A stretch of 64,000 nucleotides of DNA, from positions 23,210-87,209 of the IMG/VR virus record IMGVR_UViG_3300033143_004671, one strand, 5' to 3'. The DNA comes from a virus. This document shows positions 24,877 to 45,488 of this stretch, one piece after another. The stretch's first letter is position 1; each line of letters begins with the position of its first letter. The notes under the pieces were generated by a model that worked only from the letters and a program-made list of their open reading frames with translations, did no database searches and had not been told where the DNA came from. Made by a program: the position numbers and the translations under genes.

Positions 24877-24910
24877 ACCCTCCCTTAATCGGGAGGGCCT
24901 TTTTTTATTT
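24877..24910 (+). terminator. rho-independent terminator at the point of convergence
   Basis: ccctccc-ttaatc-gggaggg followed by a T-run. Confidence 0.8.
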
Positions 24911-25475
24911 ACTCAGACATAACGTGATAACCATACCGCTCAGTCTTTTGAGCTATCGAGGTAGCTAGCCTCCTGTCCACCTGATACAACTCAGACCATG
25001 TATACTGGTAGTGCAATTTACTGTTCGTATCGGTTCGGAATGAAGGGAAGATCACGTCACCCAATTCCAACCGATCACAAATCTCCAGCCATGTATCACT
25101 ACCCTCTGATATGTCCTCCACCTTATACCGCCACCTCGCTTGCTCCTCGCACAACTCGGACCACCATAACCAATACAACATCGACTTGAGCAACGGGTGC
25201 TGACCCTCCGTCATCCTCGGCACCCTGCCTAGCATATTACGCCAAAACACATCTGCCGACGCCGAGATGCTCGATATGGTATGGAGAGGACATCTCGTTT
25301 GATGCCACGCGTGGTCGAACTGGATTGGATTCACATATCGAGTCAGGTCCCACAGTATGGAACCCTCGTAACCTAACTCGAATTGACGTATTGCCAGACC
25401 GCAGTTCCTAAGCACCTTGAGCATATAGGTCGTGCCTGATCTTACGGGGGCAAAGATTCCGAGTTTGTATACCAT
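24909..25475 (-). CDS. sulfotransferase-like protein at the end of the tail operon
   Basis: APVRSGTTYM, HQTRCPLHTISS, YKVEDI. Confidence 0.7.
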   Translation of the reverse strand: MVYKLGIFAPVRSGTTYMLKVLRNCGLAIRQFELGYEGSILWDLTRYVNPIQFDHAWHQTRCPLHTISSISASADVFWRNMLGRVPRMTEGQHPLLKSMLYWLWWSELCEEQARWRYKVEDISEGSDTWLEICDRLELGDVIFPSFRTDTNSKLHYQYTWSELYQVDRRLATSIAQKTERYGYHVMSE

Positions 25476-25478
25476 CCG

Positions 25479-26225
25479 TCACCCAATAGGATCGTTCGAC
25501 GTAGGCTCCGCTATCAGGTTCCCGTCGAAGTCACTCGCTCCATACCAAGACGTACCCGCCTTATCCCACCACCCCATGAGATGTAGGCAATCATCGAATG
25601 CCATATAGCCGTCCTTGCCTCCTTCGGAGGACATTGTAACGGCAACTGTCCAGGCGTGTCCTCCACTGCGGGCTCCCCTATGTGACAAGTACTGCTTACC
25701 CGCCGCATCGGAATCCAATCTTAGCCAGTCACTGTGAGCATCTGATATGGCTATCAATGCAGTACCTTGGGCTTGCTCACTCATTACATACCGCGATACA
25801 TTAGGTACTGAAGTATCCTTTACCTCGAAGACGATCACCAACCTATCCGATTCCAAGTAATGAGTAGCATCACTCGCGACGGGCAACACCTCGGGCAGAT
25901 TGACAACAATCTCCTGAGCGTCCGATGGGAAAGTATCCTGTACGAAATCAATATCGGATATGTATGCCGTATCCGACATTGAGATTTTCTCACGTTCCAC
26001 CGCATAGTAGAATCCGGTAGCGTCCGACTCGACACCTGGCGTAGCCACCCGACCCAGCCACCATCCCTTGAAGAAATTAGCAGTGAACATGGTCAAAGAG
26101 GATGTGTGCCGTATCTTGATCGACCCGTCCGAGACGAGGCGCCGTCTGACGGCATTCACAATCTTATTCAGGTGACCCGCTGAAACAAAGTCGCCTCGAT
26201 TAAACTTATCCACAAACTCTGCCAT
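25479..26225 (-). CDS. putative tail tip protein (SD-rich)
   Basis: position after TMP; 11 SD in 248 aa. Confidence 0.6.
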   Translation of the reverse strand: MAEFVDKFNRGDFVSAGHLNKIVNAVRRRLVSDGSIKIRHTSSLTMFTANFFKGWWLGRVATPGVESDATGFYYAVEREKISMSDTAYISDIDFVQDTFPSDAQEIVVNLPEVLPVASDATHYLESDRLVIVFEVKDTSVPNVSRYVMSEQAQGTALIAISDAHSDWLRLDSDAAGKQYLSHRGARSGGHAWTVAVTMSSEGGKDGYMAFDDCLHLMGWWDKAGTSWYGASDFDGNLIAEPTSNDPIG

Positions 26226-26992
26226 TACCAGTTACTCGGATCGAGGTTTGCACTAAAGTCTCCCTTATCGTAAGGCTGACTACCACCCGAATCACTCATC
26301 GTATCGAAAGCAGGACCTCCCGCTTTGTCCTTACGCCAAAACTCATTCCAACTATTGAGGTGCTTGTAGGCAAACTTATATGTCAGTTGATATACGGTAT
26401 TCCCTGCTCCATCCGTGCCTTCATTAGCATCCAGTCCCTCGAAGAGCAAGTGACTGTCTGAATATACAAAGCCCTTGATCGTCACCGATCCGTCGTTGAC
26501 CAGGCCCTGCATACTGACCACTTGTGTCTTTGCATTTGCGTTAAACGTGTTCACCGTCCCCGTAATCGTGATCGTAGCCGCTGGGAATATCTTGACACCG
26601 CTCGCATCCTCGTCCGTGACCGCCTTGTCGTCTGATACCCACTGAAATCCCTCACCTATCGTAATAGCCTCGCCGGACGTCTGCCAATGTTCCTGCCACG
26701 TCGTCCAGTCGCTATTGACTTCCTGGCTGCTCAGCTTGCGGGTTTCCCACCCAACGGACAATTTGGCCTGATTAGGTCCACCCGAAGTGTCGTCGACGTC
26801 ACCCAACGGGGTGACACCAATACTTGTGCACCGAAGGTGACTCAGATCACTATGAGCGGATCCCATCAACTCAGAGATCGAGGTCAGCCTATCCGCCCAT
26901 GGACATTTATACTCTTCGGTCAATCCATCCTGATCGACTTGTGCGGCCCTATTATGAGCATTCCAGAGTTTAGTCAGGTCTGAGATCGCCAT
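26225..26992 (-). CDS. putative distal tail/hub protein
   Basis: immediately downstream of TMP. Confidence 0.6.
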   Translation of the reverse strand: MAISDLTKLWNAHNRAAQVDQDGLTEEYKCPWADRLTSISELMGSAHSDLSHLRCTSIGVTPLGDVDDTSGGPNQAKLSVGWETRKLSSQEVNSDWTTWQEHWQTSGEAITIGEGFQWVSDDKAVTDEDASGVKIFPAATITITGTVNTFNANAKTQVVSMQGLVNDGSVTIKGFVYSDSHLLFEGLDANEGTDGAGNTVYQLTYKFAYKHLNSWNEFWRKDKAGGPAFDTMSDSGGSQPYDKGDFSANLDPSNW

Positions 26993-29560
26993 CTAGGCTA
27001 CCATCCTTCCTGCATTGACAATGTTCTTATTCAACTTCTCGGCTTCCTTTTTAATGGCCTCCAGGTTCTTATTCGCCTTCTTCGCCTCCTTCAACTCGGG
27101 TGACATAGCGACAGACTGCAAACGCCTGAACAGATCCTGGAATCCTTCAAACCGTCCCGCACCCATTCCAGGACCGGCCATACGCTTTTGAGCTTCCGCG
27201 TTTATTTGATCCTTGAACTGATCGAATAGTTTGGGGCCCAGACGATTCTTCATTGCTTGCACCCAGGCATCGGTCTCTGCCTTGCGTCTGGCGGCGTCGG
27301 GCATTCCTGCAATCGTACCTCGCCTCAACTCCTCTAGGGCGGAGACTTGGTCTTTCATATCCGAGATCATACTACGTCCGAGTCGTCGCGAGTTTTCCTT
27401 AGCCTCCCGCTCGGCCTTAGCTACCGCAGCTTTATCGATACGTTCCTTCTCCTTAACCACTTTCTCTGAATAACGTCTAGCCGTCTCTTCCGCCTCCCTT
27501 GCCTGTTTCTCAGTCGCTTCCTGCTCTTTTAGCCTTCTTTCCTCGTCCGACTTAAATAGTGCTGCATCTAGTTCATGCTGGGCTTTTAGTTTCGCTTGGT
27601 CAGATTTCAGTTTCAGATCAGATGCTAGCCTCTCAGCCTCCGCTACCTCCTCTGGTGTCTTCCCTGCCAGCTTTCTAGAGGTAAGTAGCTTCATCTGCTT
27701 CCTATTCGCCTCCAATATTCTTTTTTGATTCTCCAACTCTTCTCTAAGACTTTTCAGTCTATCCTTCTTCTCTTTCATCCTCACTTCGCGCTGCTCTCGG
27801 GCTGCTATTCGTATCTCCTGGGCTCTTAACTGCATAGCAGGATCTGAATAAGTCTCCATCCCCATTGTAAACTTATGGATCTCTGCCAGTGCTTTTTTCT
27901 TTTCCTCCCTAACTGCTTCCTCTGCATCTCCTATAGCCTTCGCAGTCTTTTTTATGCTTATCTGTATCGTCTTTTTCTCATTAAGGAGCAGTTGCTTATT
28001 TACCTCTTCCATTGCAGCAGCCCATGACAAAGCAGCATTCACAACCCCATCAATAGCAGAAGCTAGATTTGGCAAGCTATTCGTCAAGCTCGTCTGTAAC
28101 CTAACTAGTTCCATCTCCTCCTCTACTGACCGTTCCTGTTTCTCGGTAAGTTCCCGCAGGCGTTCCATTTTTTCCCTAATGGCTGCATTCTCAATCCTCG
28201 TCGAATCCGCCGCTTGCCGATTAGCATGTGACATCTCGATAGCCTTCTCCGTCATCTCGGCTATCTTACTACCTAACTCCTCAATCGCTCCCTCCCAGTC
28301 CCTAGTTGCAATTATGGCTATACCTATAATCGCAACAAACGCACCTATCGGGTTCATCGTCAGCAAAGTCAAGGCAACAGACAGTACCTTAACAGCAGCA
28401 GCTACAGCCATAATCCGCAGGGCCCAAGCCGCTGCTGTCTCTAGAAAAGCCAGAACCGCACCAGAATTGTTCCGTATCGCGGATGCTAGATTCCCGAGAA
28501 ACTTAACCAACCCCTTTACCTGAGGCATAAGAGCCTGACCTATCGAAATAGCAGCCTCATTGAATCCCGCCTTGACTTGCTTCAATTGAAATCCGACAGT
28601 GCGCTGTATCTTTGCAAAAGCCTGTTGAGTCAAACCAGTAGAGTTAGTCTGCAATGCTAGATCTTTCGACAGGCCGGTAAGGTCCTGCATCGCCGCCGCA
28701 ACACCTTTAAGTCCTCTAACGTTTGGGAATATCTGTCCAAGCTGTTCCGCCGTCAATCCGTTCAGTCTCTCGAAGACTCCCGACAATCCCTCGGCCCTAA
28801 GGGTTGCCGTATTCAATGCGATACCATACTGATCCGCAGCTTCCACAGCCTCCTCAGTGGGAGATAGAAATGTTCGTAATGTGCCCACAACGGCCGTCAT
28901 CGCTTGGTCCGACTTGATGCCTACACGGGTGATAGTGGAGATGGAAGCGAGCAGTTCCTCCAAACTCAATCCAGAAACAGCCGCCACAGCCGCGACTTTA
29001 CCTATCGACGATCCTAATTCCTCGAATGTGATCTTGCCCCTCTTCACTGTAGCCCACAGTTTATCGGACACCTCGGCCGCTCTTTCGGCGTCCATCTGAT
29101 AAGCATTCAAGATCGTAGTAATGGCATCTGTCGATACCGCCGTACTTGTCATTCCTGCCGCCGCCGCTTTCGCGGCAACGGCCAGTACGTTCATCGCTTT
29201 CTCGGGAGCTATACTGGCAGACAGGACGTCATACAATCCCTTGGATAGTGTCCTGGTCGATTCCCCAAACTCCACTGCGAGAGCCCTGACTTGTCTCTCG
29301 AATCTCGCCATGGTTGGTCCTACGTTATCCGACAGCATGGTCGAGACGTTCGCCATCTCGGATTCAAATCTGACTGCCTGCCTCACGGCTACGGCCATGA
29401 ATCCACCAATTGCAATGAACACTCGCTTTGCAGTTCTAGACACGGCTTGCAAGTTCTCATTAGCCCCTGATAAACTTGCATGGAATCCCTTGAGTTTCAT
29501 TTGAACGGCCCGCAGGCCCTTCACGGTGAACTCGGCATACAGTTCTGCAATCTTAGCCAT
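26993..29560 (-). CDS. tape measure protein (TP901-like core)
   Basis: FESEMANVSTM, GLYDVLSA, TVKRGKITFEEL, long coiled coil. Confidence 0.93.
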   Translation of the reverse strand: MAKIAELYAEFTVKGLRAVQMKLKGFHASLSGANENLQAVSRTAKRVFIAIGGFMAVAVRQAVRFESEMANVSTMLSDNVGPTMARFERQVRALAVEFGESTRTLSKGLYDVLSASIAPEKAMNVLAVAAKAAAAGMTSTAVSTDAITTILNAYQMDAERAAEVSDKLWATVKRGKITFEELGSSIGKVAAVAAVSGLSLEELLASISTITRVGIKSDQAMTAVVGTLRTFLSPTEEAVEAADQYGIALNTATLRAEGLSGVFERLNGLTAEQLGQIFPNVRGLKGVAAAMQDLTGLSKDLALQTNSTGLTQQAFAKIQRTVGFQLKQVKAGFNEAAISIGQALMPQVKGLVKFLGNLASAIRNNSGAVLAFLETAAAWALRIMAVAAAVKVLSVALTLLTMNPIGAFVAIIGIAIIATRDWEGAIEELGSKIAEMTEKAIEMSHANRQAADSTRIENAAIREKMERLRELTEKQERSVEEEMELVRLQTSLTNSLPNLASAIDGVVNAALSWAAAMEEVNKQLLLNEKKTIQISIKKTAKAIGDAEEAVREEKKKALAEIHKFTMGMETYSDPAMQLRAQEIRIAAREQREVRMKEKKDRLKSLREELENQKRILEANRKQMKLLTSRKLAGKTPEEVAEAERLASDLKLKSDQAKLKAQHELDAALFKSDEERRLKEQEATEKQAREAEETARRYSEKVVKEKERIDKAAVAKAEREAKENSRRLGRSMISDMKDQVSALEELRRGTIAGMPDAARRKAETDAWVQAMKNRLGPKLFDQFKDQINAEAQKRMAGPGMGAGRFEGFQDLFRRLQSVAMSPELKEAKKANKNLEAIKKEAEKLNKNIVNAGRMVA

Positions 29561-30236: not shown

Positions 30237-30352
30237 CTTCCTGCTCTTCCTTTCATAACACGTCAAATCCTTGCGAGGATTGTTTCTAACCAACGATCTC
30301 GCGATAAACGACCCGATACACGTTATATCGAGCAATGCCCTTACAGGGCGTC

Positions 30353-31603
30353 CTACGTTGTCTCCGTCCCAGGCCACATGGAACCCTGGAAGGTCAGATT
30401 GTCGGTTATCAGCGTATCCACCGCTGCCGAGGGACTGATACCGGAGACTATACCCCATCCGCTGAGGTAGTTGCCTGTATCCTCGTCAGTGTAAAATCGT
30501 AGAATACAACGCTTCGATATTACACCATAACCGAGGGGATTGATCCAATACCTGTCGGCCGAGCCAGTCCAACCCTTCAAGCCAGCTTTGAACGTACGCC
30601 AACCCGTCGAGCGGAAGTCAGTATCATCCATCATATCCGCAGCAATATCCAACGACCAACTCGTGAAACCACCACACTCGACAGTCATCGGATAGTGGCG
30701 ATAGGTCGCCGTGACGGCCTCACCGGCTTGCGATGTCTTAAACGTGATCGACCCTTTTGGTGTTATCGAGAAGTCCTGACCCAACACTTGAGTCACTCCT
30801 CCTGAGACCACCGTCAGGTTTTCATATTCCACATTCTCATACGCGGTGCGATAGACAGTAGTTGATCCGGAGTCCGACGTAAGCGCCTCGGTCGTCTCGG
30901 TATTGTAGGTCGTAGTAACCCAACCGTCACCACCAACTACGGCATCATTACTGTTCTTAGATGAATCGTCGCCGAAGGTGCCTGCCCCCTCGTGGAACAT
31001 CCACTCACCTTCGAGATCACCGAGAACGGCTCCGGGGAAGTTGCCCTTCCACAAATCACTAATCTGAGCATCTGTCAACGCCGCACTGTAGATGCGGACC
31101 AAGCCGACCCGAATAGCGTTGGTATTCGTGGGATCACCAAATACCAAATCACTCGTATTGGATAAGTCCCCAGCCGTCAGAGTCGCCGTATTTGCAGCGA
31201 CGGCATCCGTGTAGATACGAATCCTATCGTTGGCAACATCTCTCACACCAACCAGGTGAACCCAATTGTTATTAGCAACATCGGTGGCTCCGGCTACCAC
31301 ATCGCTTGTCGAGGCATCATTGGTTTGGAAGATGGGCTTACCACCTGTAAATCCAAGGAACCAACCAACTCCCGTATCGCTAAGCACAACTTCGCTAAGG
31401 ATTGATCCTTTAGAGACCAGATCGCCTATATTACTCACGTCACTGTTCGGCGTCATCCATGCCTCGACACTGAACGAGGCATCCGATGCAAAGTCCAGTT
31501 CACCGCCAGTAGGATCCGCGACGGTAATATCGCCGCCCGACGTACTGACGGCGTTCTGCTTTGAAAGATAGAACGCTCCGAGATACCCTTTTGTCGCTGC
31601 CAT
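30353..31603 (-). CDS. tail-tube-like protein with an inserted LamG/ConA-like domain
   Basis: FSVEAW, WVHLVGV, VRIYSAALT (LamG); WSLDIAADMMDDTDF...WRTFKAGLKGWTGS is paralogous to the next gene. Confidence 0.75.
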   Translation of the reverse strand: MAATKGYLGAFYLSKQNAVSTSGGDITVADPTGGELDFASDASFSVEAWMTPNSDVSNIGDLVSKGSILSEVVLSDTGVGWFLGFTGGKPIFQTNDASTSDVVAGATDVANNNWVHLVGVRDVANDRIRIYTDAVAANTATLTAGDLSNTSDLVFGDPTNTNAIRVGLVRIYSAALTDAQISDLWKGNFPGAVLGDLEGEWMFHEGAGTFGDDSSKNSNDAVVGGDGWVTTTYNTETTEALTSDSGSTTVYRTAYENVEYENLTVVSGGVTQVLGQDFSITPKGSITFKTSQAGEAVTATYRHYPMTVECGGFTSWSLDIAADMMDDTDFRSTGWRTFKAGLKGWTGSADRYWINPLGYGVISKRCILRFYTDEDTGNYLSGWGIVSGISPSAAVDTLITDNLTFQGSMWPGTETT

Positions 31604-31630: not shown

Positions 31631-32017
31631 TTAGCCACCAGTGAACCACATATCACTCGTACCCTGGAAGTCCAGCGATTGGGTGGCCACACCATCAACG
31701 GTCGTGGCAGGATGCCAACCACTACAGATCGCCTGCCCATGCATGTAGTCAGTACTGTTGACATACAGCTTGATTGTAGCCGTCGATCCCACGTCACTCG
31801 GGACGATCTGGTTCGTACTGTCCACGTACAACTCGATACTACCAGACCAGCTATTGAGCCCACGTGTGAACTCACGCCATCCATTACTGTCAAAGTCGGT
31901 GGTGTCGTGAGTATCACCCGCGACATCCAACGACCACGAATGAGCGCGATAGACGACGTCCGAATCGACAATCGCACCCCAATCCAACTCTCCATCATAT
32001 CCAGGAATCGTACCCAT
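31631..32017 (-). CDS. major tail tube protein
   Basis: WSLDVAGDTHDTTDFDSNGWREFTRGLNSWSGS...FQGT. Confidence 0.8.
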   Translation of the reverse strand: MGTIPGYDGELDWGAIVDSDVVYRAHSWSLDVAGDTHDTTDFDSNGWREFTRGLNSWSGSIELYVDSTNQIVPSDVGSTATIKLYVNSTDYMHGQAICSGWHPATTVDGVATQSLDFQGTSDMWFTGG

Positions 32018-32046: not shown

Positions 32047-32451
32047 CTACTGCCAACGAATCCTAAAATCCGCCGTCATCTGCCACACTCTATCTTCTCC
32101 GAACCACGTTGGTCCGGTGCTGCCTTCTCTCGCACAACTTATGTGCGTCTTGCTATCGTACGTCAATGTAGCCCTATCGAAGACCACATTCAAGTCCGAA
32201 TACATCTGGTTGATAGTCGAGCTATCGTCGCTATCATCGTACAAACTAAACTGCACGATGGCTTCCTGCCAATCGCCATTCTCATTAAACGTCCTAACAG
32301 GCGTCTCGGAGATCAGATCGAAGGTGATCCAGGGCAATGTCTTATCGCCAGGCACGTGAGAAAAGTATACATCGCTCGTCACGGCGAGCAGTGTGGCATC
32401 GCTGGCCTTCGTGTTTATGGCAATAATCAATTCGTCGATATCACCTGGCAT
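32047..32451 (-). CDS. tail terminator (DUF3168-like)
   Basis: position; LPWITF, VQFSLY. Confidence 0.7.
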   Translation of the reverse strand: MPGDIDELIIAINTKASDATLLAVTSDVYFSHVPGDKTLPWITFDLISETPVRTFNENGDWQEAIVQFSLYDDSDDSSTINQMYSDLNVVFDRATLTYDSKTHISCAREGSTGPTWFGEDRVWQMTADFRIRWQ

Positions 32452-32877
32452 CTATATCTTCCTTATCGGTTTGCTAAAGATCCTTTTGATCTCCGGCTTT
32501 GCTTTCTCCAGAGCGGGCCGCATGAAAGGTCTGGGTTCCATCTTAGGAGTCCCAAACTCAAGCCACTTACCATACTTGACATTAGTACCCGCCCTGGAAA
32601 CAGGCAATGCAGGATGCACCCAATGCGTAATGCTTCTCTTCAACGTGCCTGTCTGCACTCTAGGCACTTCACCTGGCTTCGACCTGAACGAACCCACCTT
32701 ACCCGGCTTCTGTCCTTCCTGCAGGAACCCGCTCTCCGTCCGTCCACCCGCCTTCATCGACTCCTTTACTAACTGCTCGACGTAGACGGCTGCAACGAGG
32801 ACATCCCTACGGGATTTGTCCATCAAGGCCTTCTCAAACTCCTTGCCTCTCCAAATTAGTTTGCCTTTCGCTGCCAT
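32452..32877 (-). CDS. HK97 gp10-like protein
   Basis: TGTLKRSI, LEFGTPKMEPRPFMRPAL. Confidence 0.9.
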   Translation of the reverse strand: MAAKGKLIWRGKEFEKALMDKSRRDVLVAAVYVEQLVKESMKAGGRTESGFLQEGQKPGKVGSFRSKPGEVPRVQTGTLKRSITHWVHPALPVSRAGTNVKYGKWLEFGTPKMEPRPFMRPALEKAKPEIKRIFSKPIRKI

Positions 32878-32879: not shown

Positions 32880-33215
32880 CTATATCGCCTGTTTCAGTTC
32901 CCTCAAAACCAATTCCGTATGATGATCCATCTCATCGATGTTCCTGACCAGTTCTATCTCAAATGTCCTTGTCCCATATACTATCCTGTCCTGCTCCGTT
33001 ATCCCAGTGTAATTACCCGAGACGAACATATGATGGGTCACTGGTGTCCTCGTCGATCCATACAACTGAGCCTCCACACCTGTCATAGGTTGGATACGGG
33101 CGGGCATACTCGCATAGCGATTCGTCCACGTACGGGTGACGCCACCGCGTCGGGTGTTGGACACCGAGCACTGCTGCACATCTACCGTCACGTTCATTAG
33201 CGTATCAAACGACAT
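32880..33215 (-). CDS. head closure/head-tail adaptor
   Basis: PARIQP, DRIVYGTRTFEI. Confidence 0.8.
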   Translation of the reverse strand: MSFDTLMNVTVDVQQCSVSNTRRGGVTRTWTNRYASMPARIQPMTGVEAQLYGSTRTPVTHHMFVSGNYTGITEQDRIVYGTRTFEIELVRNIDEMDHHTELVLRELKQAI

Positions 33216-33216
33216 A

Positions 33217-34449
33217 CTATCGCCACACCTCGGCACCAGCCTTAATTCTTTCCATCATACGAAAGTGGTAATCAGATGCAATAGTAGCGACATTAGGCTG
33301 CCACGGCGAAGGAAAGACACAAAATCCTTTCGCTCCCAGATCCCTAAACTTCCGACACATCGCAACTACTTTCGCTTTAGATACCAGTGCCCCGCTATAG
33401 TCAGCAAAATTGGAATCTGCCAACAAGGTAATCCACAAATACCCTTCCATATCATGCCTATCCCCAGGATAGTCATTATTAGGTCTCGCTGTTATCAGAG
33501 GAGCAAGATCATTTCCGGCATGGTCTGCATCGTGAGCAAGCCATTCGTCTACCTGACTAGGCGGATCGCTGGCTAACCAAATACCCGGTCCCGATTCACG
33601 TTGTTCGTTTGGATGCTCTACATAGAAGGGACTCATTGGAATGTCCCCCACACCACTAAAGAAGTGCAGGTTCCCATCGTAGTAGTATATTTTAGGATCG
33701 GCACCCGCGGCGCTACGGATGTCGGCCGGCATGGCTGCCTTAGCCCCTATATATTCCTGATCGACTAGTACAAAATCGGGAGACCACCTGCTTATTACCG
33801 TCTGCATGTAATCGAGCCATGCGGCGTATCGCTCGGCATCGGTGTCGAAATCGTAGTAACTGTTATTCTCGTCGCTATCGTCGAAGATACCATTCCACGA
33901 GATTGTTACCGTTAGTGGATCTGCATACTGTGCCAGAACAGCTTTAAGCCAGACACTATGAGCACCCCCAACAAAGATGCCTACCGCATAGGCATCGAGG
34001 TAGGCGTCAATGATCTCGACCGCCTTGGCATCGGCCTGGGATCCCCCATTATCCAAATCGTAGACCCCATCCCAATCAATCTCGAATGGAAAAACAATCC
34101 TCGTGCTGGCTTCGGAGATCGTCACCTTTAACTCGCGAAGGATAACCTCGGTATGATGATCCATCAGATCCAAATCCCTGACGAATACTATCTCGAAAGT
34201 CCTGGAGCCAAAAACTACCCTATCGGCTTCCTCGATTCCAGTATACGTCGATGGCACAAACATCTTATGAGTTACAGGGGTCCTCTCTGAACCATACAAC
34301 TCCTGCTCCGTACCCGAAACGGGTTGGATTCGTGCAGGCATGCTAGTATACCTATCCGACCAGGTCAGGATAGACCCCGCCCTGCGTGTACCGGACTTCG
34401 TACACTCCTGCACATCAACCGTTATGTTCATCAAGGAGTCAAACGACAT
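33217..34449 (-). CDS. head-closure paralog fused to an ~300-aa unknown (possibly glycoside-hydrolase-like) domain
   Basis: first ~108 aa closely resemble 32880-33215; C-terminal domain contains VLVDQEY. Confidence 0.65.
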   Translation of the reverse strand: MSFDSLMNITVDVQECTKSGTRRAGSILTWSDRYTSMPARIQPVSGTEQELYGSERTPVTHKMFVPSTYTGIEEADRVVFGSRTFEIVFVRDLDLMDHHTEVILRELKVTISEASTRIVFPFEIDWDGVYDLDNGGSQADAKAVEIIDAYLDAYAVGIFVGGAHSVWLKAVLAQYADPLTVTISWNGIFDDSDENNSYYDFDTDAERYAAWLDYMQTVISRWSPDFVLVDQEYIGAKAAMPADIRSAAGADPKIYYYDGNLHFFSGVGDIPMSPFYVEHPNEQRESGPGIWLASDPPSQVDEWLAHDADHAGNDLAPLITARPNNDYPGDRHDMEGYLWITLLADSNFADYSGALVSKAKVVAMCRKFRDLGAKGFCVFPSPWQPNVATIASDYHFRMMERIKAGAEVWR

Positions 34450-34652: not shown

Positions 34653-35519
34653 TCAAACTCCCCTCACGACTACTTTGGCGTGAGGCTGAAGTTTCTCTCG
34701 TATCACACTCATCTGCGTTCTAACGGCAGACGACATTCCTGCTCCCTTCCTATAACTATAATCACCGATCTTCTCCGACTCGAGTGAACCATCCTGTTTC
34801 GACCAGTCGTAGAACAACTTCACGAGTTCCAGGGTCGCGTTTCGGATGGCCTCTGGTACGTCCTCCCTCGCATATCCAGCGGTATACTCAATCAAGATAT
34901 TCTTGTGTCCGTAGTCCCATCCCTTCGGATTGTACAGTCTACCACTATCGGCATCCTCGATCTCATATTCTGTTTCACTCTCTTCTGGTATCACGAGATT
35001 GACTATTCGATCCTTTGCCGACTGTGCAGGCACTATCACGAGTTCTGCCGGTGTGTAATCCCCAAACGTATCGACCACTACCGATGTCCAACCCGTCAGG
35101 GTGTTCACATCGGAGACTAAGGCAGTAATCGTAGCATGATCCGATAGGACAAGATCATTAGTCGTCGTAGTACCCGCTACACGCTTACTCAGCTTCAAAT
35201 GAACATCGGTAACCTGGACGGTTGCCCTACTCGCATCCCCATTATCGTATGTCACCGTAGCCACGTCATCTCGATCCGTACTGGCAAGATCGACCTGTGT
35301 CACTGGCACATTTTCGAGCCATAAGTAAGCCCGACCCGTCCCACTATGGTATTCTCGATATGACTGCGAGATTACATTGTAGCCCAACCAGTCATTGATA
35401 ACACTACAAGCCTGACTCACCATCTCGTCGATTTTTCTATCGTAGGTCGAGACGGTGACAGGCAAGTATCGCTTCGCATCTTCAAGACTGATGATTCCAA
35501 TTTTGCCGGGAACGGCCAT
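34653..35519 (-). CDS. head-tail connector (gp6/gp15-like) with an insertion
   Basis: SLEDAKRYL, YTAGY...VPEAI, ESEKIGDYSY. Confidence 0.8.
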   Translation of the reverse strand: MAVPGKIGIISLEDAKRYLPVTVSTYDRKIDEMVSQACSVINDWLGYNVISQSYREYHSGTGRAYLWLENVPVTQVDLASTDRDDVATVTYDNGDASRATVQVTDVHLKLSKRVAGTTTTNDLVLSDHATITALVSDVNTLTGWTSVVVDTFGDYTPAELVIVPAQSAKDRIVNLVIPEESETEYEIEDADSGRLYNPKGWDYGHKNILIEYTAGYAREDVPEAIRNATLELVKLFYDWSKQDGSLESEKIGDYSYRKGAGMSSAVRTQMSVIREKLQPHAKVVVRGV

Positions 35520-35872
35520 CAGATTTCCTCTTGTATGTTTATCTCGATGTCTTTGGTATACTGCACGACCGAGTTTGCATCGGTCACTTTGAAGGAGCCA
35601 ACATAGATTCCATACGAATCGCTGATGTCCGCCCAATCACTCGCAGTCGGTGTGATAGTCACCTCGGCATCACTCGCGGGTGATCCGATACTAATGTAGT
35701 CACTACCCGTCCCTCCCGTATTGCGGATGAAATAGGCCTGAGTGTATCGCTCGTGCCACTTCAACTGAAACTCGACTGTAGCTCCTGTCAAATCCAATGC
35801 ATCACCACTAGCATCGGATAGAGTAATGACCCAATCACGACAGTCCCCCTTATGCACTGTAAAATCGCTCAT
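35519..35872 (-). CDS. BppU-N-like virion protein (SD-rich)
   Basis: KGD...LDLTGATV; 6 SD in 117 aa. Confidence 0.6.
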   Translation of the reverse strand: MSDFTVHKGDCRDWVITLSDASGDALDLTGATVEFQLKWHERYTQAYFIRNTGGTGSDYISIGSPASDAEVTITPTASDWADISDSYGIYVGSFKVTDANSVVQYTKDIEINIQEEI

Positions 35873-36075
35873 TATTCCTGTAGTCCTACTGTCACGGTCA
35901 AGCTCGTCTGTCCTTTAGTTAATCCCGTTACCGATTCCATCCCTTTTGTCAGACCAGTCGTGCCGGTCATTCCAACTGAACTAGAAATAGTCTGCGAGTC
36001 TGCAACGGGGGAGACAGCAGCCGTATGCTTCCATCCCAACGCCCATCTCAATATATCAAATCGTCCTACTGACAT
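35872..36075 (-). CDS. small structural-module protein
   Basis: coupled to both neighbours. Confidence 0.5.
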   Translation of the reverse strand: MSVGRFDILRWALGWKHTAAVSPVADSQTISSSVGMTGTTGLTKGMESVTGLTKGQTSLTVTVGLQE

Positions 36076-37685
36076 TATTGCACTCTCGTAATCGGATTAG
36101 CATCCACGTCACTCGTCACCTTTTTCGTCAGGTGTGTTGTCGTCCCATCCGTCTTGTATATCGTCCAGTCGGATCCAACTATCTTGCTCTCCAGGATCGC
36201 CTGGACAACGGTATACATTGACCCTCCCTGAGCCGTAGCATCGACATCAGACATACTCGTACTAAGGAAGTCTCTCGTAATGTCACTAATGTTAGTCAGA
36301 CCTCTATCTGCCGCGTTCCATATATCAGAAGGGACAGCATGAAAATCAGAATCAGGTGTTGTCAGTGTCCTAGCAGCGGCTCCCCAAGTATCACTCGGAA
36401 CAGCATGAAAATCGCTCAAAGGTGTTGTGAGTGTACGGGTGCCCGCAGCCCACACGTCACTATCGGGAATGTTGAGGTTGGTATCGGCAGTAAGAACTCT
36501 AGTGCTCTGCACCCAAACATCAGATGCTATCTCGTCCTTAGTAGATATGACAGGCACAGAACCATCATTCCACGATGCTACGTTAACATCCTTTGTGCCT
36601 TGCACCCAAACATCCGAAGCAACAGCATCCTTACTAGTAGTAGACAGGGCGAAGTCACTCAATGCGGTTAGTGCCCTATTCGTTTCAGTCCATACAGCAG
36701 CAGCTACAGCATCCGAAGTAGGAGCACTACCTCCTCCCCCAGTAGTCCACGCCGAGTCACCTCGGTCTCGGATAGCTTCCAAGCTGTCAGTCGCGTTACT
36801 ATAATCACTAACATCTCCACCAACAGCTACGATATGAGCAAGGATGGTATTATTGGCCAGGACGCCGCTCAAGTCAGCATCACCAACCTTAGCCAAGTGG
36901 TCGAGATTGTAATCCGTGATGAGGGTATTCAGATTAGTATCCGATGTTAGTGTCCTGGTTCCTGCACCCCATATATCACTCGGAACGGCATGGAAGTCGC
37001 TAAGAGGTGTAGTAAGAGTTCTAGAGGCCTGTGCCCAAGTATCTGATGCAACGGCATCCTTACTAGCCGTGCTGAGAGCAAACCCGGCCTTGTCCGTGAG
37101 TGCTCTCGCAGCCGCGTTCCATATATCAGAAGGGACAGCATGAAAATCAGAATCAGGTGTTGTCAGTGTCCTTGTTCCAGCAGCCCAGACATCCGAGTCT
37201 GGCAGATTAGTCGCCGCAGTGAGCACTCTAGTGCTCTGCACCCAAGTATCCGACGCTACCGCGTCTTTACTCGCTGCAGACAAGGCAAATCCAGTTTTAT
37301 CGATCTCGGCTGACCTTACACTACCCGTAACGTCACTATTCAGAGCGTAGTAAGCGTCGCTGAACTTAACCGCATAGACAGGCGACTCAAAGGGCAGGAC
37401 ACCATCAGCGACACCAACGACCCGTAACTCACCTATAGTATTGTTTTGGGCGTCCGAGATACTAATGCTGTACACACCACTACCCTTATGTGCCCAAGCC
37501 CACTGGCCTGCATCCGATAAGGTAATATCGAACTTTGTTGATCCTGCCCCGTTTGTCTTTATCAGATCGACGGACATACCAGCCGCGTTATAGGCAACAC
37601 TGGTCTCCAATGTCTTGAAATCCGTATCATCGACCAACGGACCTACCGTTACGATCCATTCTTTATTGAGGGGTATATCGGGCAT
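36075..37685 (-). CDS. repeat-rich virion fibre-like protein (SDxW...TRTLT repeats)
   Basis: about a dozen W-containing repeats; 26 SD in 536 aa. Confidence 0.7.
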   Translation of the reverse strand: MPDIPLNKEWIVTVGPLVDDTDFKTLETSVAYNAAGMSVDLIKTNGAGSTKFDITLSDAGQWAWAHKGSGVYSISISDAQNNTIGELRVVGVADGVLPFESPVYAVKFSDAYYALNSDVTGSVRSAEIDKTGFALSAASKDAVASDTWVQSTRVLTAATNLPDSDVWAAGTRTLTTPDSDFHAVPSDIWNAAARALTDKAGFALSTASKDAVASDTWAQASRTLTTPLSDFHAVPSDIWGAGTRTLTSDTNLNTLITDYNLDHLAKVGDADLSGVLANNTILAHIVAVGGDVSDYSNATDSLEAIRDRGDSAWTTGGGGSAPTSDAVAAAVWTETNRALTALSDFALSTTSKDAVASDVWVQGTKDVNVASWNDGSVPVISTKDEIASDVWVQSTRVLTADTNLNIPDSDVWAAGTRTLTTPLSDFHAVPSDTWGAAARTLTTPDSDFHAVPSDIWNAADRGLTNISDITRDFLSTSMSDVDATAQGGSMYTVVQAILESKIVGSDWTIYKTDGTTTHLTKKVTSDVDANPITRVQ

Positions 37686-38962: not shown

Positions 38963-38965
38963 GGT

Positions 38966-39580: not shown

Positions 39581-39592
39581 GCCTGTTGTCCT

Positions 39593-40774
39593 TTACATAG
39601 TAACCAATTCTTCCTTCGATACTCTTTCATTTTTGACGTTCAATATGTCTTTGAATAGTTCTATGAACTGTCCCGCTGTTCTAGCCGGATCAAACTCCCT
39701 CTCGGCCCTGCCTCTATTCGTCTCGATGCACTGTTCCTTATGCGTCCTCCAATCCTCCCAAGCATCATCCATCGCTTCCGAGAACCCCGTCAAATCCTCC
39801 TCGTCCGCACTATACAACACATAGGGATTTCCATAGCCAGCAACCACATTTAGACCACATGCCAACGCCTCGCGAATCGTCCTCGTGGCGATCTTGTGAG
39901 GTGTAATGAGCATATCGCCTGCCGAGTAAACCGTTCTGAGATTACTGACGATAGGCTTCACCTCACCCAATATACCCCTATCCTTCAAACAGTCGAATAG
40001 AGTGTCCCTCGCCAATCCGTTACCATCTATTCCATAAATATGAAGTTTGGCGCCTTCGTGTTTTTCCGCGAACAGGACAAAGGCGTTGAGAATATGGAAC
40101 GGGTCCTTATCCTTCCGCCAAATGTCGGCCATCACAACGTTGATTTCTCCCTTATTCCCACCGAAGTCATAATCAGTCTCCTCCCTGGTCCAGTAGTCGA
40201 GATCGACAAAAGGCTGAAATTGCCGAACGGGCTGGAAGACAAGTTTCCAGTACCGCTCGAATCCCGGCCACAAGGTCACCATGCATTTCCATCTTTCGTC
40301 CTGCATCATATCCTTGTACATCGAGTAGATCGGTGACCCACCATCCCGCTCGATCCGATATGAGCTATTAGGCCGTCCATGTGCCACATGAACTCTCGGT
40401 ATATCCAGAGTATCGAAGGCGGGTGTCAGGCCACCATGGCTTACTATCACATCCGATGTTTTGGCAAAAGCAAAGTCGGCTATTACAACACCCCGATCTG
40501 CGGAGTAGGCCGGAGGGCGGATACCTACCTCGTCCTTCTTATCGACTACACTGAACACATAGTCGCACTTCGGGCACTTCACCCCACGGCTGCTTCTGGC
40601 AAACACCTTGCCCCGCTTCTCCCTCGAAGACGGTCTTGGATCGACAATCATTGCATTGACACCTAAGGCCCGCTCCGCCTTCACGAGTTCGCGGACAGTC
40701 TCGTACATACCCGATAGATGGGATGTAACGGGAACTACGTGACTCACTCTCAACTTTTTCTTTCGTCTCTTCAT
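39593..40774 (-). CDS. GT4-like glycosyltransferase inside the structural module
   Basis: SGMYETVREL, HVAHG, FVDLD, RKDKDP, REALACGLNVV. Confidence 0.85.
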   Translation of the reverse strand: MKRRKKKLRVSHVVPVTSHLSGMYETVRELVKAERALGVNAMIVDPRPSSREKRGKVFARSSRGVKCPKCDYVFSVVDKKDEVGIRPPAYSADRGVVIADFAFAKTSDVIVSHGGLTPAFDTLDIPRVHVAHGRPNSSYRIERDGGSPIYSMYKDMMQDERWKCMVTLWPGFERYWKLVFQPVRQFQPFVDLDYWTREETDYDFGGNKGEINVVMADIWRKDKDPFHILNAFVLFAEKHEGAKLHIYGIDGNGLARDTLFDCLKDRGILGEVKPIVSNLRTVYSAGDMLITPHKIATRTIREALACGLNVVAGYGNPYVLYSADEEDLTGFSEAMDDAWEDWRTHKEQCIETNRGRAEREFDPARTAGQFIELFKDILNVKNERVSKEELVTM

Positions 40775-40786
40775 TCTTTCTTCCTG

Positions 40787-41311: not shown

Positions 41312-41388
41312 TCTCTCTATCCTTCAAGAATCCGATTCGGCTTGAGATCGTACGTATAAGTCCGCCATAGTCTCACTCGTTTCTTGCG

Positions 41389-43170
41389 CTAGGCCAAATC
41401 AATCACACGGACCTCGGTTGTTCCCGTACCAGAATCGTCGAGCGTCTTGCCCGCCGTTCGCTGAACGTCCACAAAGGCGTTGTTAGTTGCGCCTTCGTAC
41501 ACCTTCGCATAAGCGGCCGCGCCTGCCTCGCCAGCGGGAATGTCTATCGTGCTGTTCTTGACGAGCAAGTTGTCGCAGTTGGCCCGCACGTAGATAATCG
41601 CCGAGGCACCGGCGACTTTCTTCTGGGCCGTGAAGGTCAGGCCGTCGATGAGCGTGTTGACGCAGGCGGTTGTCCCGATGTCGATGTAATCGCAGTGCTC
41701 CGCAATGCAGTTGACAACCCGGCCGTTGGCGACATCGAGAAACAACGCACGCGAACAGAACTCGAAATTGCACGAATCAACGATAGGGCCGACTCCGGAA
41801 CCTCTATACCCATAGGTCGCATTTAGCGCCCGATTATTACGAAAGCGATTGAAGTGGCCACTATCGAGGAAGGCAGTCTCGAAGTCCTGAACCACCACAT
41901 TTTCAACCAGTGCCCGCGTTGTCCACTGCGTTCGGAACCCCGCCCCGGACGCCACGCCCCCCATGTCGGCGATCCGCCCACCGTCCCACCTGCTCTGGTT
42001 GCCCATGACGACGGCTCCGTGGTCGGCGACCGTCCACGTGTCCCACACGAGCAACGCCCCCCGTGCATCCACGCTCGACCCGTCTCGAACGTAGATCGTG
42101 TCGGACAGGTCGTATCGACCGGGGGCCAGCGTGATCGTGCCGCCTCTTACTCCCGATGCCGTTGGCAGGCTTGTAAATGCCTGTTCGGCGTATTCGTTCC
42201 CACCATACTCATAGAAGATCATTTGCAGCATGGTCTCGCTTGGAAACGCTGTGCGTTGAATGTTGCTGGTGATGACGGACGGCACGTCGATATTGACCGT
42301 GCCGGTGTCAGACGACGACCTGAGCACGACGGCGTGGAACGTCCAGTCTTCCCGGCGGTAGTTGCCGGGAAAGTCCCCCTGGGCGATTGACCAAAGTTCG
42401 ATCTCCTCTTGCGCCGGGCGGCTTGCCGTGTGGTGGTAGCCGGTGAAGTGGCAGATCACCATGTAAATCCGCGAATTGTAGACGAAAACGTCGGGACAGA
42501 AGTAATTGTCTCCGAACAGAGGCTGTGTGGATTTCGTCCACGAGGTCAAATTCGTACTGGTGGCGATGGCCGTCCTTCGCGGGAAGACGCCGACGGTATT
42601 GTAGAACAGGTAGTACGTGGACGACACCTTGATAAGGCCGCACGGGTCCAGTTCCGAGGCCAGGGCGTCCCAGGATGTCGTGGCACCCGCGGCCGACATG
42701 GTAAGCACGGCCGTACCGCCGTTCTGCACGGTCCACGCGATGCCATTGGAAGAGGTCGAGTAGAAGATGCCGTCATTGAACCCGCGATGCAATGCCTTCC
42801 ACGTCGTCGCCCCCTCTTTCCAGACCCGTGCAACGGAGTAGTTCGACCACCCGGTAAGCGTTTGAGCATTGCCCCACGTCTTGCCGTCGGTCGAGTCGTA
42901 CCGCTTGTCTTTGTAGAACAGGTAGTACTTGGAATCATCCGCACAGTAAAACGCACACGGGTAGTAGTTGAGTTCACCGGGGATCGAGTCGCCCGTGCGG
43001 GTGAACAGGTTGGTTGTGACTAGCGCATTGGATGCCTCCACTATCTCGACTTCGTCGTTCACGCCATCGCAAACGTAGTCTGCGATGCTCCGTAGTTGAC
43101 GGGGACTATCGGCGGCCACCACGAGGATGGACCGCGTCACCGCCTTTAATGTAGCTGCATTCCACGTCAT
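41389..43170 (-). CDS. tailspike-like protein: GH43/32-like beta-propeller plus pectin-lyase-like beta-helix
   Basis: ADYVCDGVNDE, SxDG/SxNG..W repeats, YYLFY, GGTITLAPGRY, beta-helix C-terminus. Confidence 0.7.
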   Translation of the reverse strand: MTWNAATLKAVTRSILVVAADSPRQLRSIADYVCDGVNDEVEIVEASNALVTTNLFTRTGDSIPGELNYYPCAFYCADDSKYYLFYKDKRYDSTDGKTWGNAQTLTGWSNYSVARVWKEGATTWKALHRGFNDGIFYSTSSNGIAWTVQNGGTAVLTMSAAGATTSWDALASELDPCGLIKVSSTYYLFYNTVGVFPRRTAIATSTNLTSWTKSTQPLFGDNYFCPDVFVYNSRIYMVICHFTGYHHTASRPAQEEIELWSIAQGDFPGNYRREDWTFHAVVLRSSSDTGTVNIDVPSVITSNIQRTAFPSETMLQMIFYEYGGNEYAEQAFTSLPTASGVRGGTITLAPGRYDLSDTIYVRDGSSVDARGALLVWDTWTVADHGAVVMGNQSRWDGGRIADMGGVASGAGFRTQWTTRALVENVVVQDFETAFLDSGHFNRFRNNRALNATYGYRGSGVGPIVDSCNFEFCSRALFLDVANGRVVNCIAEHCDYIDIGTTACVNTLIDGLTFTAQKKVAGASAIIYVRANCDNLLVKNSTIDIPAGEAGAAAYAKVYEGATNNAFVDVQRTAGKTLDDSGTGTTEVRVIDLA

Positions 43171-43174
43171 GTTA

Positions 43175-43564
43175 TCATCTTTGCTGCACATACACGGAGG
43201 CCGTCGTATCACTACCCGATGCTGCGGAAGCCTCCAACTTCACCGCAAACAATCCTTTCACCTTCATCCACAAACTACCCGTACCGGACAAGGCGAGAGA
43301 AGTAAAATCTGTACCCGCCCCTTCAATCGGTGGTGTGATGTTGGTCACAAAATCTGACTCGGCATTTGCTATCACTTGGTACGCAGCATCAGGATGTGGC
43401 TTGATGCTTACCTGAAAGGCGTCGAATGCCTTATGAGGGGAGTTCTCGATAGACATCCACATATCCGTCGCCCCCTCGCGAACAAAAATCTCAGCAAGTT
43501 CACCGGTCGATGCCGCTGTAATCGCCACATCCAGGAATGATTGTTTCCAATAAGAACTAGCCAT
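43175..43564 (-). CDS. hypothetical virion protein
   Basis: ORF with RBS in the head module. Confidence 0.6.
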   Translation of the reverse strand: MASSYWKQSFLDVAITAASTGELAEIFVREGATDMWMSIENSPHKAFDAFQVSIKPHPDAAYQVIANAESDFVTNITPPIEGAGTDFTSLALSGTGSLWMKVKGLFAVKLEASAASGSDTTASVYVQQR

Positions 43565-43692
43565 CTTCAGTTCCCTTAGATGGCTGGTTTGTCGTAATCC
43601 AAACCGGCCATCTTTCTCAGTACCTCACCGTCGCTAACCTGTCCCCGAGGTACGGTGTCCAATGGACAGGTCACTAACACAGCACAGCGATT

Positions 43693-43756
43693 CCCCGCAT
43701 GGGGTTGGTGAGTGGAATATTTCACCCTCACCCTTTAGCTATGTGCCTAGCTATTC
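43693..43756 (-). repeat. 64-bp three-hairpin element, copy 1
   Basis: near-identical to 44793-44856. Confidence 0.9.
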
Positions 43757-44134
43757 TTCTTCAGTCTCGGCGATCCTTCTTCGCCTTTTCTTTTTGGCTT
43801 TTCTCGGATCGGTTCCCACATCAGCTTCCTCGTTCGTCCTCGTGGCAATAAGTTTTGCGATAGGGCGAGTTTTGTCGATTGATTGGATCAACCGGTTGGC
43901 TATCCTGGGGGGAACCCACACCTCTGCTGATGTCTCGAAATCCCACACAATCCGGATCTTACCATCGGAACCTACTTCCTGTTTTTTAGTCGGGGCATAG
44001 TTAGTTCCTTCATCGACAAAATCACCTTTCTTGTTTACCTCTACCGATGAAGAAATTGTGACATACCGATGAGGCTGAATCTGTATCAGCATCGTCGGCG
44101 CCTCTTCCTTAGGATCGAACCTATACGCAGCCAT
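43751..44134 (-). CDS. hypothetical protein
   Basis: GGAG RBS; basic C-terminus. Confidence 0.6.
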   Translation of the reverse strand: MAAYRFDPKEEAPTMLIQIQPHRYVTISSSVEVNKKGDFVDEGTNYAPTKKQEVGSDGKIRIVWDFETSAEVWVPPRIANRLIQSIDKTRPIAKLIATRTNEEADVGTDPRKAKKKRRRRIAETEEE

Positions 44135-44244
44135 CTCACATCTCCGACGCCTTGCTCCTTTCGGCAGCTCGCGTCTAAACCTGATCGCCCGCGTTAACCG
44201 ACGACCAAGTGCTTCTCACAAACCTTACCGTGCCTACGGCGTGC

Positions 44245-44703
44245 CTACGGCGTGATACAAACATCGCTTCCGTCGGCTCCCAAGTAGAATACACCCGACA
44301 CTCCGGTATCGCTAGTCGCGATACCGGTAAACTTAATCCCATCGCTCTCGCCAGAAGCGTCCTCGGAAGCCGACAGGTATATTGTGCTCTGAGCACCAAG
44401 CATAAGCTTTACAGTGTCGCTTAGCCTGACATCACCACCCTGAAAATGCCAGTCACCGGTCAGCTTCGTATCGGTCCCATCATGCGTGATCGATGCATCA
44501 CCAGCATCACCAAACTCAAGTTTTACAGTATCGGACAAGCGAAGGTCCGCACCTTCTATATCCAGTACGCCGTTGGACGAGTCATACCGGAACGCCACGT
44601 CACCATCCGTCCCGAAGTAGAACTCTTTGTCATCTCGCATCCAAACGTCATCGAACGTCTTCTGGAATGCACATGCCGAACGTCCACTAGGAATCGCTCC
44701 CAT
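44245..44703 (-). CDS. putative head fibre/decoration protein
   Basis: repeated RLSDTVKL..G; downstream of the capsid gene. Confidence 0.6.
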   Translation of the reverse strand: MGAIPSGRSACAFQKTFDDVWMRDDKEFYFGTDGDVAFRYDSSNGVLDIEGADLRLSDTVKLEFGDAGDASITHDGTDTKLTGDWHFQGGDVRLSDTVKLMLGAQSTIYLSASEDASGESDGIKFTGIATSDTGVSGVFYLGADGSDVCITP

Positions 44704-44792
44704 GATTTTTACCTCTGTCCGGTCTTATCTCCGATCTGATATGAGCGCCGGACAGCTCTATCAGACCCTGGACACAACACGACACGACACAT

Positions 44793-44856
44793 CCCCGCGT
44801 GGGGTTGGTGAGTGGATGTTTCATCCCTCACCCTTTAGCTATGTGCCTAGCTATTC
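44793..44856 (-). repeat. 64-bp three-hairpin element, copy 2
   Basis: near-identical to 43693-43756. Confidence 0.9.
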
Positions 44857-44981
44857 CATATTCAGTTTTCATTCGAGGTCGTGGGTGCCGGGCGGCAGGG
44901 CCAGGAAGAAGGAACCCTGCCAGCCCAGCACCCGACCTCAACACCCAGTATCGTACTGGGGGCCCATCGAGGCCTAGTTCA

Positions 44982-45488
44982 CTAATACGCTGTGCGAGCA
45001 CCGGCCCACGGTGCTTCAAGCAAATCGTGGCCGATAAACACAGCAGAGATTTTACTTCCGGTTCCATCGGAGTCATATTGCACGTTGACATACCTGCTCA
45101 CGTTCGGGAGGTTGATAATATACGTACCATCCTCCGTCAGGTTTGCAATGGTATTGGACGAGACAGTAACATCACTGATCGCCGTACCCAGGTTGCCCTG
45201 TGCATAAAAACTCGAACGGTCAGAAGCAATCAAAACCTTTGCCGTGCCGTCGCTCGCGACAGCGGACAACGCAGTACCACTCGTGGCAAAGTTTGAAGCC
45301 GATGAGGTCCAAACTTCGACGTTCGCCTGATCACTACCAGCGGCATTATCCAGAACGATGACCAGGGTCCCGTTCTGGGCTCCGCCCGTATCCACTTCGT
45401 TGAAGATCAGATCGCTACCGGCCGCGCCTGTGGCGACGTTGTTCATCATCTGGGCGAATCTGGTTTTGAAAATGTTACCTTTCGGCAT
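44982..45488 (-). CDS. putative capsid decoration/cement protein (SD-rich)
   Basis: directly after MCP; 6 SD in 168 aa. Confidence 0.65.
   Translation of the reverse strand: MPKGNIFKTRFAQMMNNVATGAAGSDLIFNEVDTGGAQNGTLVIVLDNAAGSDQANVEVWTSSASNFATSGTALSAVASDGTAKVLIASDRSSFYAQGNLGTAISDVTVSSNTIANLTEDGTYIINLPNVSRYVNVQYDSDGTGSKISAVFIGHDLLEAPWAGARTAY

Follow-up and report, generated by a model that had tools for sequence, protein, structure and literature searches.

A putative Ser-Asp-hydrophobic tag on accessory virion proteins of a phage clade, and the glycosyltransferase gene that accompanies it

The IMG/VR virus record IMGVR_UViG_3300033143_004671 is a linear single contig of 87,209 bp (CheckV completeness 84%). 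Its bases 23210-87209 form the 64,000-nucleotide window analysed here, in which the late genes are on the minus strand. A preliminary description of this DNA had counted the dipeptide Ser-Asp (SD) by hand in the virion proteins, found it frequent, and read it as the acceptor site of a phage-encoded glycosyltransferase (GT), singling out the gene at 39593-40774. Is SD truly in excess in these proteins? If so, is this the result of composition or of a bias in the DNA, does the dipeptide serve the structure of the proteins, or is it a mark that an enzyme reads? In this uncultured phage and its relatives, Ser-Asp-hydrophobic is two to five times more frequent than expected in about ten accessory virion proteins. 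We regard this motif as a putative phage O-glycosylation tag on virion proteins, a reading in which belief and doubt are evenly matched.

Ser-Asp in the late proteins of one phage

On recount, the hand counts proved exact. SD occurs 26 times in the 536 aa of a repetitive fibre (36075-37685), 11 times in a tail-tip protein of 248 aa (25479-26225), 7 times in the 416 aa of a LamG-containing protein (30353-31603) and 6 times in the 255 aa of a protein just downstream of the tape measure protein (26225-26992). Smaller virion proteins have 6 in 117 aa (35519-35872), 6 in 168 aa (44982-45488), 5 in 152 aa (44245-44703), 4 in 134 aa (tail terminator, 32047-32451) and 3 in 128 aa (tail tube, 31631-32017). 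The control counts were equally accurate: none in the 508 aa of the helicase (13488-15014), 1/462 in DnaB, 1/497 in the portal (56264-57757), 2/439 in TerL (58093-59412), 2/366 in the major capsid protein (MCP; 45504-46604) and 8/855 in the tape measure protein (TMP; 26993-29560). The gene labels used here and in the earlier work are borne out by PHROG and Pfam scans.

Expected numbers were obtained by composition-preserving shuffling of residues inside each protein. Across the 25 proteins of 24909-47547, SD occurs 106 times against 42.7 expected (2.49x, z 10.4), so that it remains far over expectation after the correction for composition that the preliminary description had proposed. SD ranks first of the 400 dipeptides in this block, followed by DF at z 3.7, and Ser precedes one fifth of all Asp. 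The order of the residues and their identity both matter: DS stands at 1.02x, TD at 0.83x and SE at 0.95x, GD and AD are unremarkable, and the fibre, for which a preference of order had been claimed, holds 26 SD and 6 DS. There is no enrichment in the packaging block (48484-61003; 13 against 9.5 expected) or in the early plus-strand genes (34 against 47.3). Five proteins reach p<=0.001 individually, namely those at 25479-26225, 35519-35872 and 44982-45488, the fibre and TMP; the MCP and tail tube of this phage are not significant individually.

Chance, composition or a bias at the level of the DNA would be the simplest account of these numbers. The SDs of the fibre are mostly inside internal repeats and are not independent, which inflates its counts, and there is a mild over-use of AGY codons in SD (47% of SD serines and 34% of other serines in 24909-47547; Fisher p 0.013). 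However, z is 10.4 after within-protein shuffling, and with the fibre left out there are still 80 SD against 36.7 expected (Poisson 4e-10). Of the matches to the codon pattern (TCN|AGY)GAY, 106 are in frame 0, against 13 and 34 in the other two frames. All 12 SD codon pairs occur, with both serine codon classes in use. The frame specificity means that the signal acts at the protein level, as had been supposed, and together with the use of all 12 pairs it rules out a DNA-level cause. With DS not enriched and the excess replicated in relatives, an origin in chance, composition or DNA bias is refuted, and the probability left to it is negligible. At equivalent positions of the fibre repeats, the serine codon is TCT in one repeat type and AGT or AGC in the other.

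Nor is the excess a legacy of common ancestry. All-against-all BLAST of the SD-rich proteins linked only the tail tube with the LamG-tube protein and the two copies of a duplicated head-completion domain, which agrees with the earlier view that the excess spans unrelated proteins.

The residue after SD is far from random. In eight enriched families, A, V, I, L, M, F, W, Y, T or C follows in 85 of the 102 distinct SD columns (83%), against a background of 52%; no column has E, K or P in this place, and D, G, N and Q are rare there. A hydrophobic residue or Thr stands next in 26/26 cases in the fibre, compared with 20/47 in the early and packaging proteins of this phage and 2/8 in TMP. The unit is accordingly S-D-hydrophobic, that is, S-D-(A/V/I/L/F/T).

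The motif in relatives of the phage

No close relative is present among cultured phages (MCP identity <31%), and an MCP-based search of phage, IMG/VR and metagenome collections found no close relatives. Related IMG/VR loci were fetched with four probes, the 117-aa protein, the 168-aa protein, the GT and the tail tube. One of them, G001, is a complete relative of 93,511 bp with terminal repeats, syntenic with this phage at 35-59% protein identity (MCP 50%). In its MCP-to-tail block SD occurs 97 times against 35.2 expected (z 11.3) and is again the top dipeptide, compared with z 0.4 in its packaging block and z -1.3 in its early genes.

The wider comparison was anchored on the tail tube, which makes the sample unbiased as to the GT. 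Loci with tube identity of at least 39% were taken as the clade (28 loci; 76,000 residues) and those with 30-37% as the outgroup (47 loci; 117,000 residues). SD is found 803 times against 390.7 expected in the clade (2.06x; 1.2-3.44 per locus) and 479 times against 564.9 in the outgroup (0.85x; 0.31-1.34), with DS at 0.90x and 1.04x, respectively. SD enrichment is a clade trait, not a peculiarity of one genome. It had been asked earlier whether homologues from phages without the GT would be just as SD-rich, and the outgroup homologues are not.

Which proteins carry the motif? The fibre is built of internal repeats of the form SD.W....TR.LT..SDFHAVPSD.W, and after each of its SDs comes Thr or a hydrophobic residue. 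Its gene is outside the tail-tip region, with the GT on one side and the head-tail connector genes on the other. Hundreds of metagenomic homologues are built of xD.W....R.LT repeats, and five of the fetched loci (L034, L035 and L038-L040) are without this fibre gene.

On the head side, the 117-aa protein is immunoglobulin-like and its family shows SD at 3.9x. In its homologues of 48-71% identity, S19, D20, S57, D58, D79, S84 and D85 are among 17 invariant columns; in L038 and L039 its gene comes directly after the GT. The 168-aa protein adjoining the MCP, a predicted beta-sandwich, has 6 SD against 1.2 expected, and its clade orthologues are at 4.8x. The majority consensus of its family (36 representatives, mean identity 34%) holds SD three times. 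Searches of the ESM Atlas gave leads only, to beta-sandwich folds, and the protein is a possible capsid decoration or cement protein. The 152-aa protein belongs to a family at 3.1x, in which novel orthologue sites are at 2.6x, and a 129-aa protein with 2 SD (43175-43564) to one at 3.7x (novel sites 2.7x).

On the tail side, the terminator, which matches PHROG tail-terminator families, has a family value of 2.5x and two conserved sites. The three SDs of the tail tube were gained in the clade (orthologues 2.6x). SD19 is invariant and lies inside a 3-residue insertion; GLTGGS of the outgroup is replaced by PSDVG, and the C-terminal QGTGAL by QGTSDL. Most clade tail tubes have an SD near the C-terminus, one clade-specific SD being 6-7 residues from the end. 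The segments exchanged in this way resemble loops or termini. Since the tube SDs stand where the outgroup has Gly-rich loop or terminal segments, the tube fold does not need SD. The tube gave only weak matches in the PDB (E 0.006). The protein at 30353-31603 carries a LamG domain (Pfam Laminin_G_3) at its N-terminus and shares 39% identity with the tube over its last 100 residues; the forms of relatives are 209-216 aa or 407 aa long. Its family shows 2.75x, and it may be a decorated variant of the tube. The 26225-26992 protein, in the distal-tail position, belongs to a family at 3.75x with novel orthologue sites at 4.25x and an L039 orthologue with 8 SD against 0.9 expected. The tail-tip protein at 25479-26225 has 11 against 2.3 after shuffling; its homologue in L039 has 15 against 2.6, and the G001 protein in the equivalent position 11 against 2.9.

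TMP was considered as a further member and set aside. It has 8 SD against 1.6 expected here; the G001 TMP, however, has 2 against 2.6, only two of the eight sites precede a hydrophobic residue, and most sites are not conserved. TMP lies outside the pattern and is probably not part of the system. Over the clade orthologues, SD is likewise not enriched in the MCP (0.48x), the scaffold, the GT, the head-tail adaptor (34653-35636), the head and tail completion proteins (the latter at 32452-32877) or the chaperone.

The motif is under clade-wide selection. The SD dipeptides of this phage are kept in orthologues in 52% of cases (67/130), compared with 20% for other dipeptides; Ser is retained in 55% of SDs against 29% elsewhere, and Asp in 66% against 45%. 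Orthologue SDs that do not align with those of this phage are still at 2-4x expectation in six families, from which it follows that the density is maintained despite turnover of sites.

The glycosyltransferase gene and its coupling to SD-rich proteins

The 39593-40774 gene encodes a 393-aa candidate initiating protein O-glycosyltransferase. An AlphaFold2 model built with 12 homologues (predicted local distance difference test score, pLDDT, 86.5; predicted template modelling score, pTM, 0.84) has a GT-B fold of the GT4 type, in keeping with the earlier choice of this gene as the GT. The best structural match is BshA (Z 28.7; root mean square deviation, rmsd, 2.8 Å over 319 residues). MshA (Z 27.3), PimA (25.6) and TarM (25.3) also superpose over the full length, GlgM falls in the Z 25-27 range, glycogen synthase is among the next best matches, and Foldseek E-values are about 1e-13. 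Pfam Glycos_transf_1 matches residues 207-331 only, at 22.6 bits (E 8e-5), under the 26.4 cut-off. Searches of the PDB by sequence, with the single protein and with a profile, gave no useful match, and tblastn against 50,697 phage records found no homologue. The sequence is very divergent, and membership of GT4 rests on the fold, from which the protein is predicted to be a retaining glycosyltransferase. Among 12 homologues of 24-60% identity, R298, R301, E302, A305 and G307 are invariant; the first Glu of an EX7E-like motif is not evident. Residues 57-100 form a low-confidence insertion in the N-terminal domain, with four short strands and conserved Cys67 and Cys70 (a CPxC-like pair), which might serve as a small element for binding a metal or recognising the acceptor.

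Does the GT go with the motif? Every clade locus that spans its position has an orthologue there, at 46-60% identity, and the GT belongs to the core of the late operon in this clade. Where a locus extends 4.2 kb or more upstream of the tube gene, the GT is present in 10/12 cases in the clade and in 0/19 in the outgroup. The two clade exceptions are contig-edge effects, because one contig ends in the fibre and in G001 the GT is at the other end of the record. Co-occurrence of this GT with SD enrichment in relatives, proposed earlier as a test, is thus observed.

The GT family is genetically coupled to SD-rich proteins beyond the clade as well. A scan with a diverse GT alignment gave 33 distant loci with homologues of 26-36% identity. 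Strongly SD-rich open reading frames (ORFs), defined by at least 6 SD and p<1e-3, make up 9/58 of those directly flanking the GT and 2/316 of the others (Fisher p 1.3e-6), and both non-flanking cases are within 2.2 kb of the GT. In nine of the distant loci the GT is the sole gene detectably similar to the structural block of this phage. The SD-rich neighbours contain tandem repeats of 7-11 residues starting S-D-I/L/V, in which the next residue is hydrophobic in 24/24 to 40/42 cases, and the repeats are joined to differing N-terminal domains. On such different carriers, the repeat module appears to be mobile. In L152, L145 and L166 the ORF immediately upstream of the GT homologue has SD-heptad repeats C-terminal to an apparent beta-helix domain of tailspike type; in L155 and L161 SD repeats are joined to a different, small N-terminal domain.

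We propose that the accessory virion proteins of the clade bear S-D-(A/V/I/L/F/T) as an acceptor tag. These proteins are the fibre, the small ones rich in beta structure on the head side and, on the tail side, the tube, the terminator, the LamG-tube protein and the proteins of the tip. The GT4-fold retaining enzyme of the late operon, made in the cytoplasm together with these proteins, would recognise the Asp and the next hydrophobic residue and transfer sugar from a host nucleotide sugar onto the Ser hydroxyl. Here we infer that the GT acts on protein and that Ser is its acceptor, and any statement on the identity of the sugar, or on a role in stability, adsorption or shielding, is of the same conditional kind. 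More broadly, a widespread and hitherto undescribed family of phage GT4 enzymes may O-glycosylate the Ser of S-D-hydrophobic, either in tandem repeats beside the GT or sprinkled over about ten accessory proteins; our belief in this wider proposal falls slightly short of our doubt.

Several observations weigh against a glycosylation tag. What is known of it here comes from sequences and a predicted GT fold. The contrast between clade and outgroup is essentially one evolutionary event, and about two thirds of the distant GT loci are without an SD-rich neighbour. The MCP is not enriched, with 2 SD against 1.3 expected here and 2 against 7.0 in orthologues. An apparent avoidance of SD in the MCP, scaffold, adaptor, chaperone and GT was dropped as evidence: DS is equally depleted in these proteins, so the avoidance is not specific to SD. 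In the wider fibre family (119 homologues) the pooled observed/expected ratio of SD is 1.0, and the first position of xD.W is mostly A, more often than S. Some SD columns alternate with AD, an S/A alternation to be expected of a small-residue structural position. Hydrophobic residues flank SD on both sides, and SDs so flanked could lie at strand edges. The nearest structures to the GT are small-molecule or lipid GT4 enzymes (BshA, MshA, PimA), with non-protein acceptors. The protein also has no DUF1975 domain by Pfam, and its 393 aa compare with about 500 aa for SdgA/SdgB, the staphylococcal enzymes discussed below.

Much of this would suit a motif that serves the structure or assembly of the fibre and beta-sandwich proteins. 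SD might cap a turn or the start of a strand, or bind an ion within the repeat of a trimeric fibre, and the GT might accompany the fibre cassette because it acts on something else, perhaps a glycan of the host envelope. That many SD sites are fixed columns, and that the SDs of the distant loci lie in regular repeats of 7-11 residues, as is typical of a structural repeat, fits such a motif too. However, from a motif dictated by the fold one would expect neither the strict choice of S over T and of D over E or N nor the fixed order, and one would not expect it to emerge simultaneously in some ten unrelated families of one clade. At the same positions the tail tubes of the outgroup are Gly-rich, new SD sites keep appearing at 2-4x expectation, and the adjacency of GT and SD recurs in otherwise unrelated phages. 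We hold a structural origin to be unlikely, though it is the strongest of the rivals. A tag read by an enzyme fits better than a motif intrinsic to the fold because of the strict identity and order of residues, the rule at the third position, the simultaneous involvement of about ten unrelated families, the turnover at constant density and the recurrent coupling to the GT.

The SD serine might also be modified by some other enzyme or without a sugar, by phosphorylation or by another transferase of the phage or host. A sequence pattern by itself does not identify the chemistry, and acidophilic Ser-directed enzymes exist. However, hidden Markov model (HMM) and PHROG scans recognised no kinase or protein-modifying enzyme in the conserved late block, and the GT is the only enzyme that tracks the motif across lineages. 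Such a modification is in our view improbable.

Early glycan genes, known systems and significance

Further glycan genes lie on the plus strand in an early cluster (856-5518), where they are candidates for elongation, tailoring or donor synthesis. There is a GT1-family gene with a solid match (3600-4601), a GT2 gene (2734-3603) and a further GT gene (856-1812) with weak matches, and a deacetylase with an HMM match (1856-2737); the wider cluster of 8 kb also codes for a radical SAM enzyme and a methyltransferase. Only its first five genes, those of 856-5518, have homologues in G001, at 36-45% identity. The genes of 5519-8848 (radical SAM, methyltransferase and two unassigned genes) have none there, a distribution that fits a swapped cassette. 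The products of 856-5518 might lengthen or modify the glycan, or synthesise its donor, which would tie them to the virion proteins; their target may be the virion, the DNA or the host envelope. Five GT-like genes had been counted earlier; about four have HMM or fold support and the remainder has none. The two sulfotransferases also listed then are not confirmed: the Sulfotransfer_1 and Sulfotransfer_3 HMMs match nothing in the genome, and 8117-8848 is without a Pfam or NCBIfam match. The idea of a glycan coat over the virion is not supported either. The MCP, the main exposed protein, is not enriched, which speaks for tagged accessory proteins instead of a whole-virion coat, and shielding or host mimicry as a role is speculation.

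Some other late genes are unusual in their arrangement. The 118-aa head completion protein (32880-33236, minus strand) is 67% identical to the first 111 residues of the 410-aa product of 33217-34449 (minus strand), across a Phage_HCP domain. The clade orthologues (n=11) match the domain of about 110 residues only and are 111-117 aa long, and so 33217-34449 is a duplicated copy, extended at the C-terminus, in this phage. The 454-aa product of 49787-51151 has a C-terminal domain that matches head-maturation protease PHROGs; 46627-47547, which adjoins the MCP, matches the same protease PHROG at its N-terminus only. From these matches, protease and scaffold functions may be divided unusually between the two.

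How does the proposed system compare with known ones? SdgA and SdgB O-GlcNAcylate the Ser-Asp repeats of staphylococcal adhesins [PMC3794999, PMC8561734]. They share with GtfA and TarM an inserted DUF1975 beta-domain of ten antiparallel strands, which binds the SD repeat and mediates oligomerisation [PMC8561734]. The phage resembles this system in its GT-B protein of GT4 type, predicted to act in the cytoplasm, in the Asp after each putative acceptor serine, in the proximity of the GT gene to genes for SD-rich proteins and, in the distant phage loci, in true tandem SD repeats. By analogy the SdgB/SD-repeat system would be the obvious functional counterpart [PMC3794999]. However, the motif of this phage is scattered over folded virion proteins, has a direction (SD, not SDSD) and requires a hydrophobic residue in third place. 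PDB sequence searches detected no relationship of the phage GT to SdgA/SdgB, and the suggestion of an SdgB-like enzyme gains nothing from structure: SdgB and GtfA rank 26-44 in Foldseek, and TarM, at Z 25.3, is below BshA at 28.7. BshA and MshA superpose over the full GT-B length (Z 27-29, rmsd about 3 Å over about 320 residues). They differ in having 13-18% identity to the phage GT and small-molecule acceptors (L-malate in BshA PDB entries), and the insertion at 57-100 is extra in the phage enzyme.

In the general O-glycosylation of Bacteroidota, the motif D-(S/T)-(A/I/L/V/M/T) is modified in S-layer, outer-membrane-vesicle and other virulence-associated bacterial proteins [PMC8550257]. There too, the tag is spread over many folded proteins and combines three residues: Asp, one with a hydroxyl group and one that is hydrophobic or bears a methyl group. 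In the phage, however, the order is S-D-X and not D-S-X (SD 2.49x, against the values of DS and TD given above), Thr is unused, and the proteins are phage virion proteins assembled in the cytoplasm. Mycobacteriophages encode GTs that modify their own virions, and the glycans are carried by C-terminal extensions of the subunits of capsid and tail tube (Freeman et al. 2023, as cited in PMC12619734). As far as that citation describes them, the likeness is in phage-encoded GTs for own virion proteins, putative in our case, and perhaps in an SD near the C-terminus of the tube. The differences are that here the MCP is untagged, the sites are a dispersed tripeptide, and the GT has no homologue among the phage records searched.

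In the literature searched, phage virion glycosylation is described for mycobacteriophages only, going by what PMC12619734 relates of Freeman et al. 2023, and we found no sequon described for phage virions. If the proposal is true, S-D-hydrophobic would be the first sequence-defined glycosylation sequon of bacteriophage virions, predictable from genomes alone, and glycosylated virions together with their acceptor sites could be predicted from metagenomes. The GT and its tag would also form a compact pair for the glyco-engineering of phages or proteins. For the phages themselves, such a tag would be relevant to how stable they are, how they adsorb and how hosts or immune systems recognise them.

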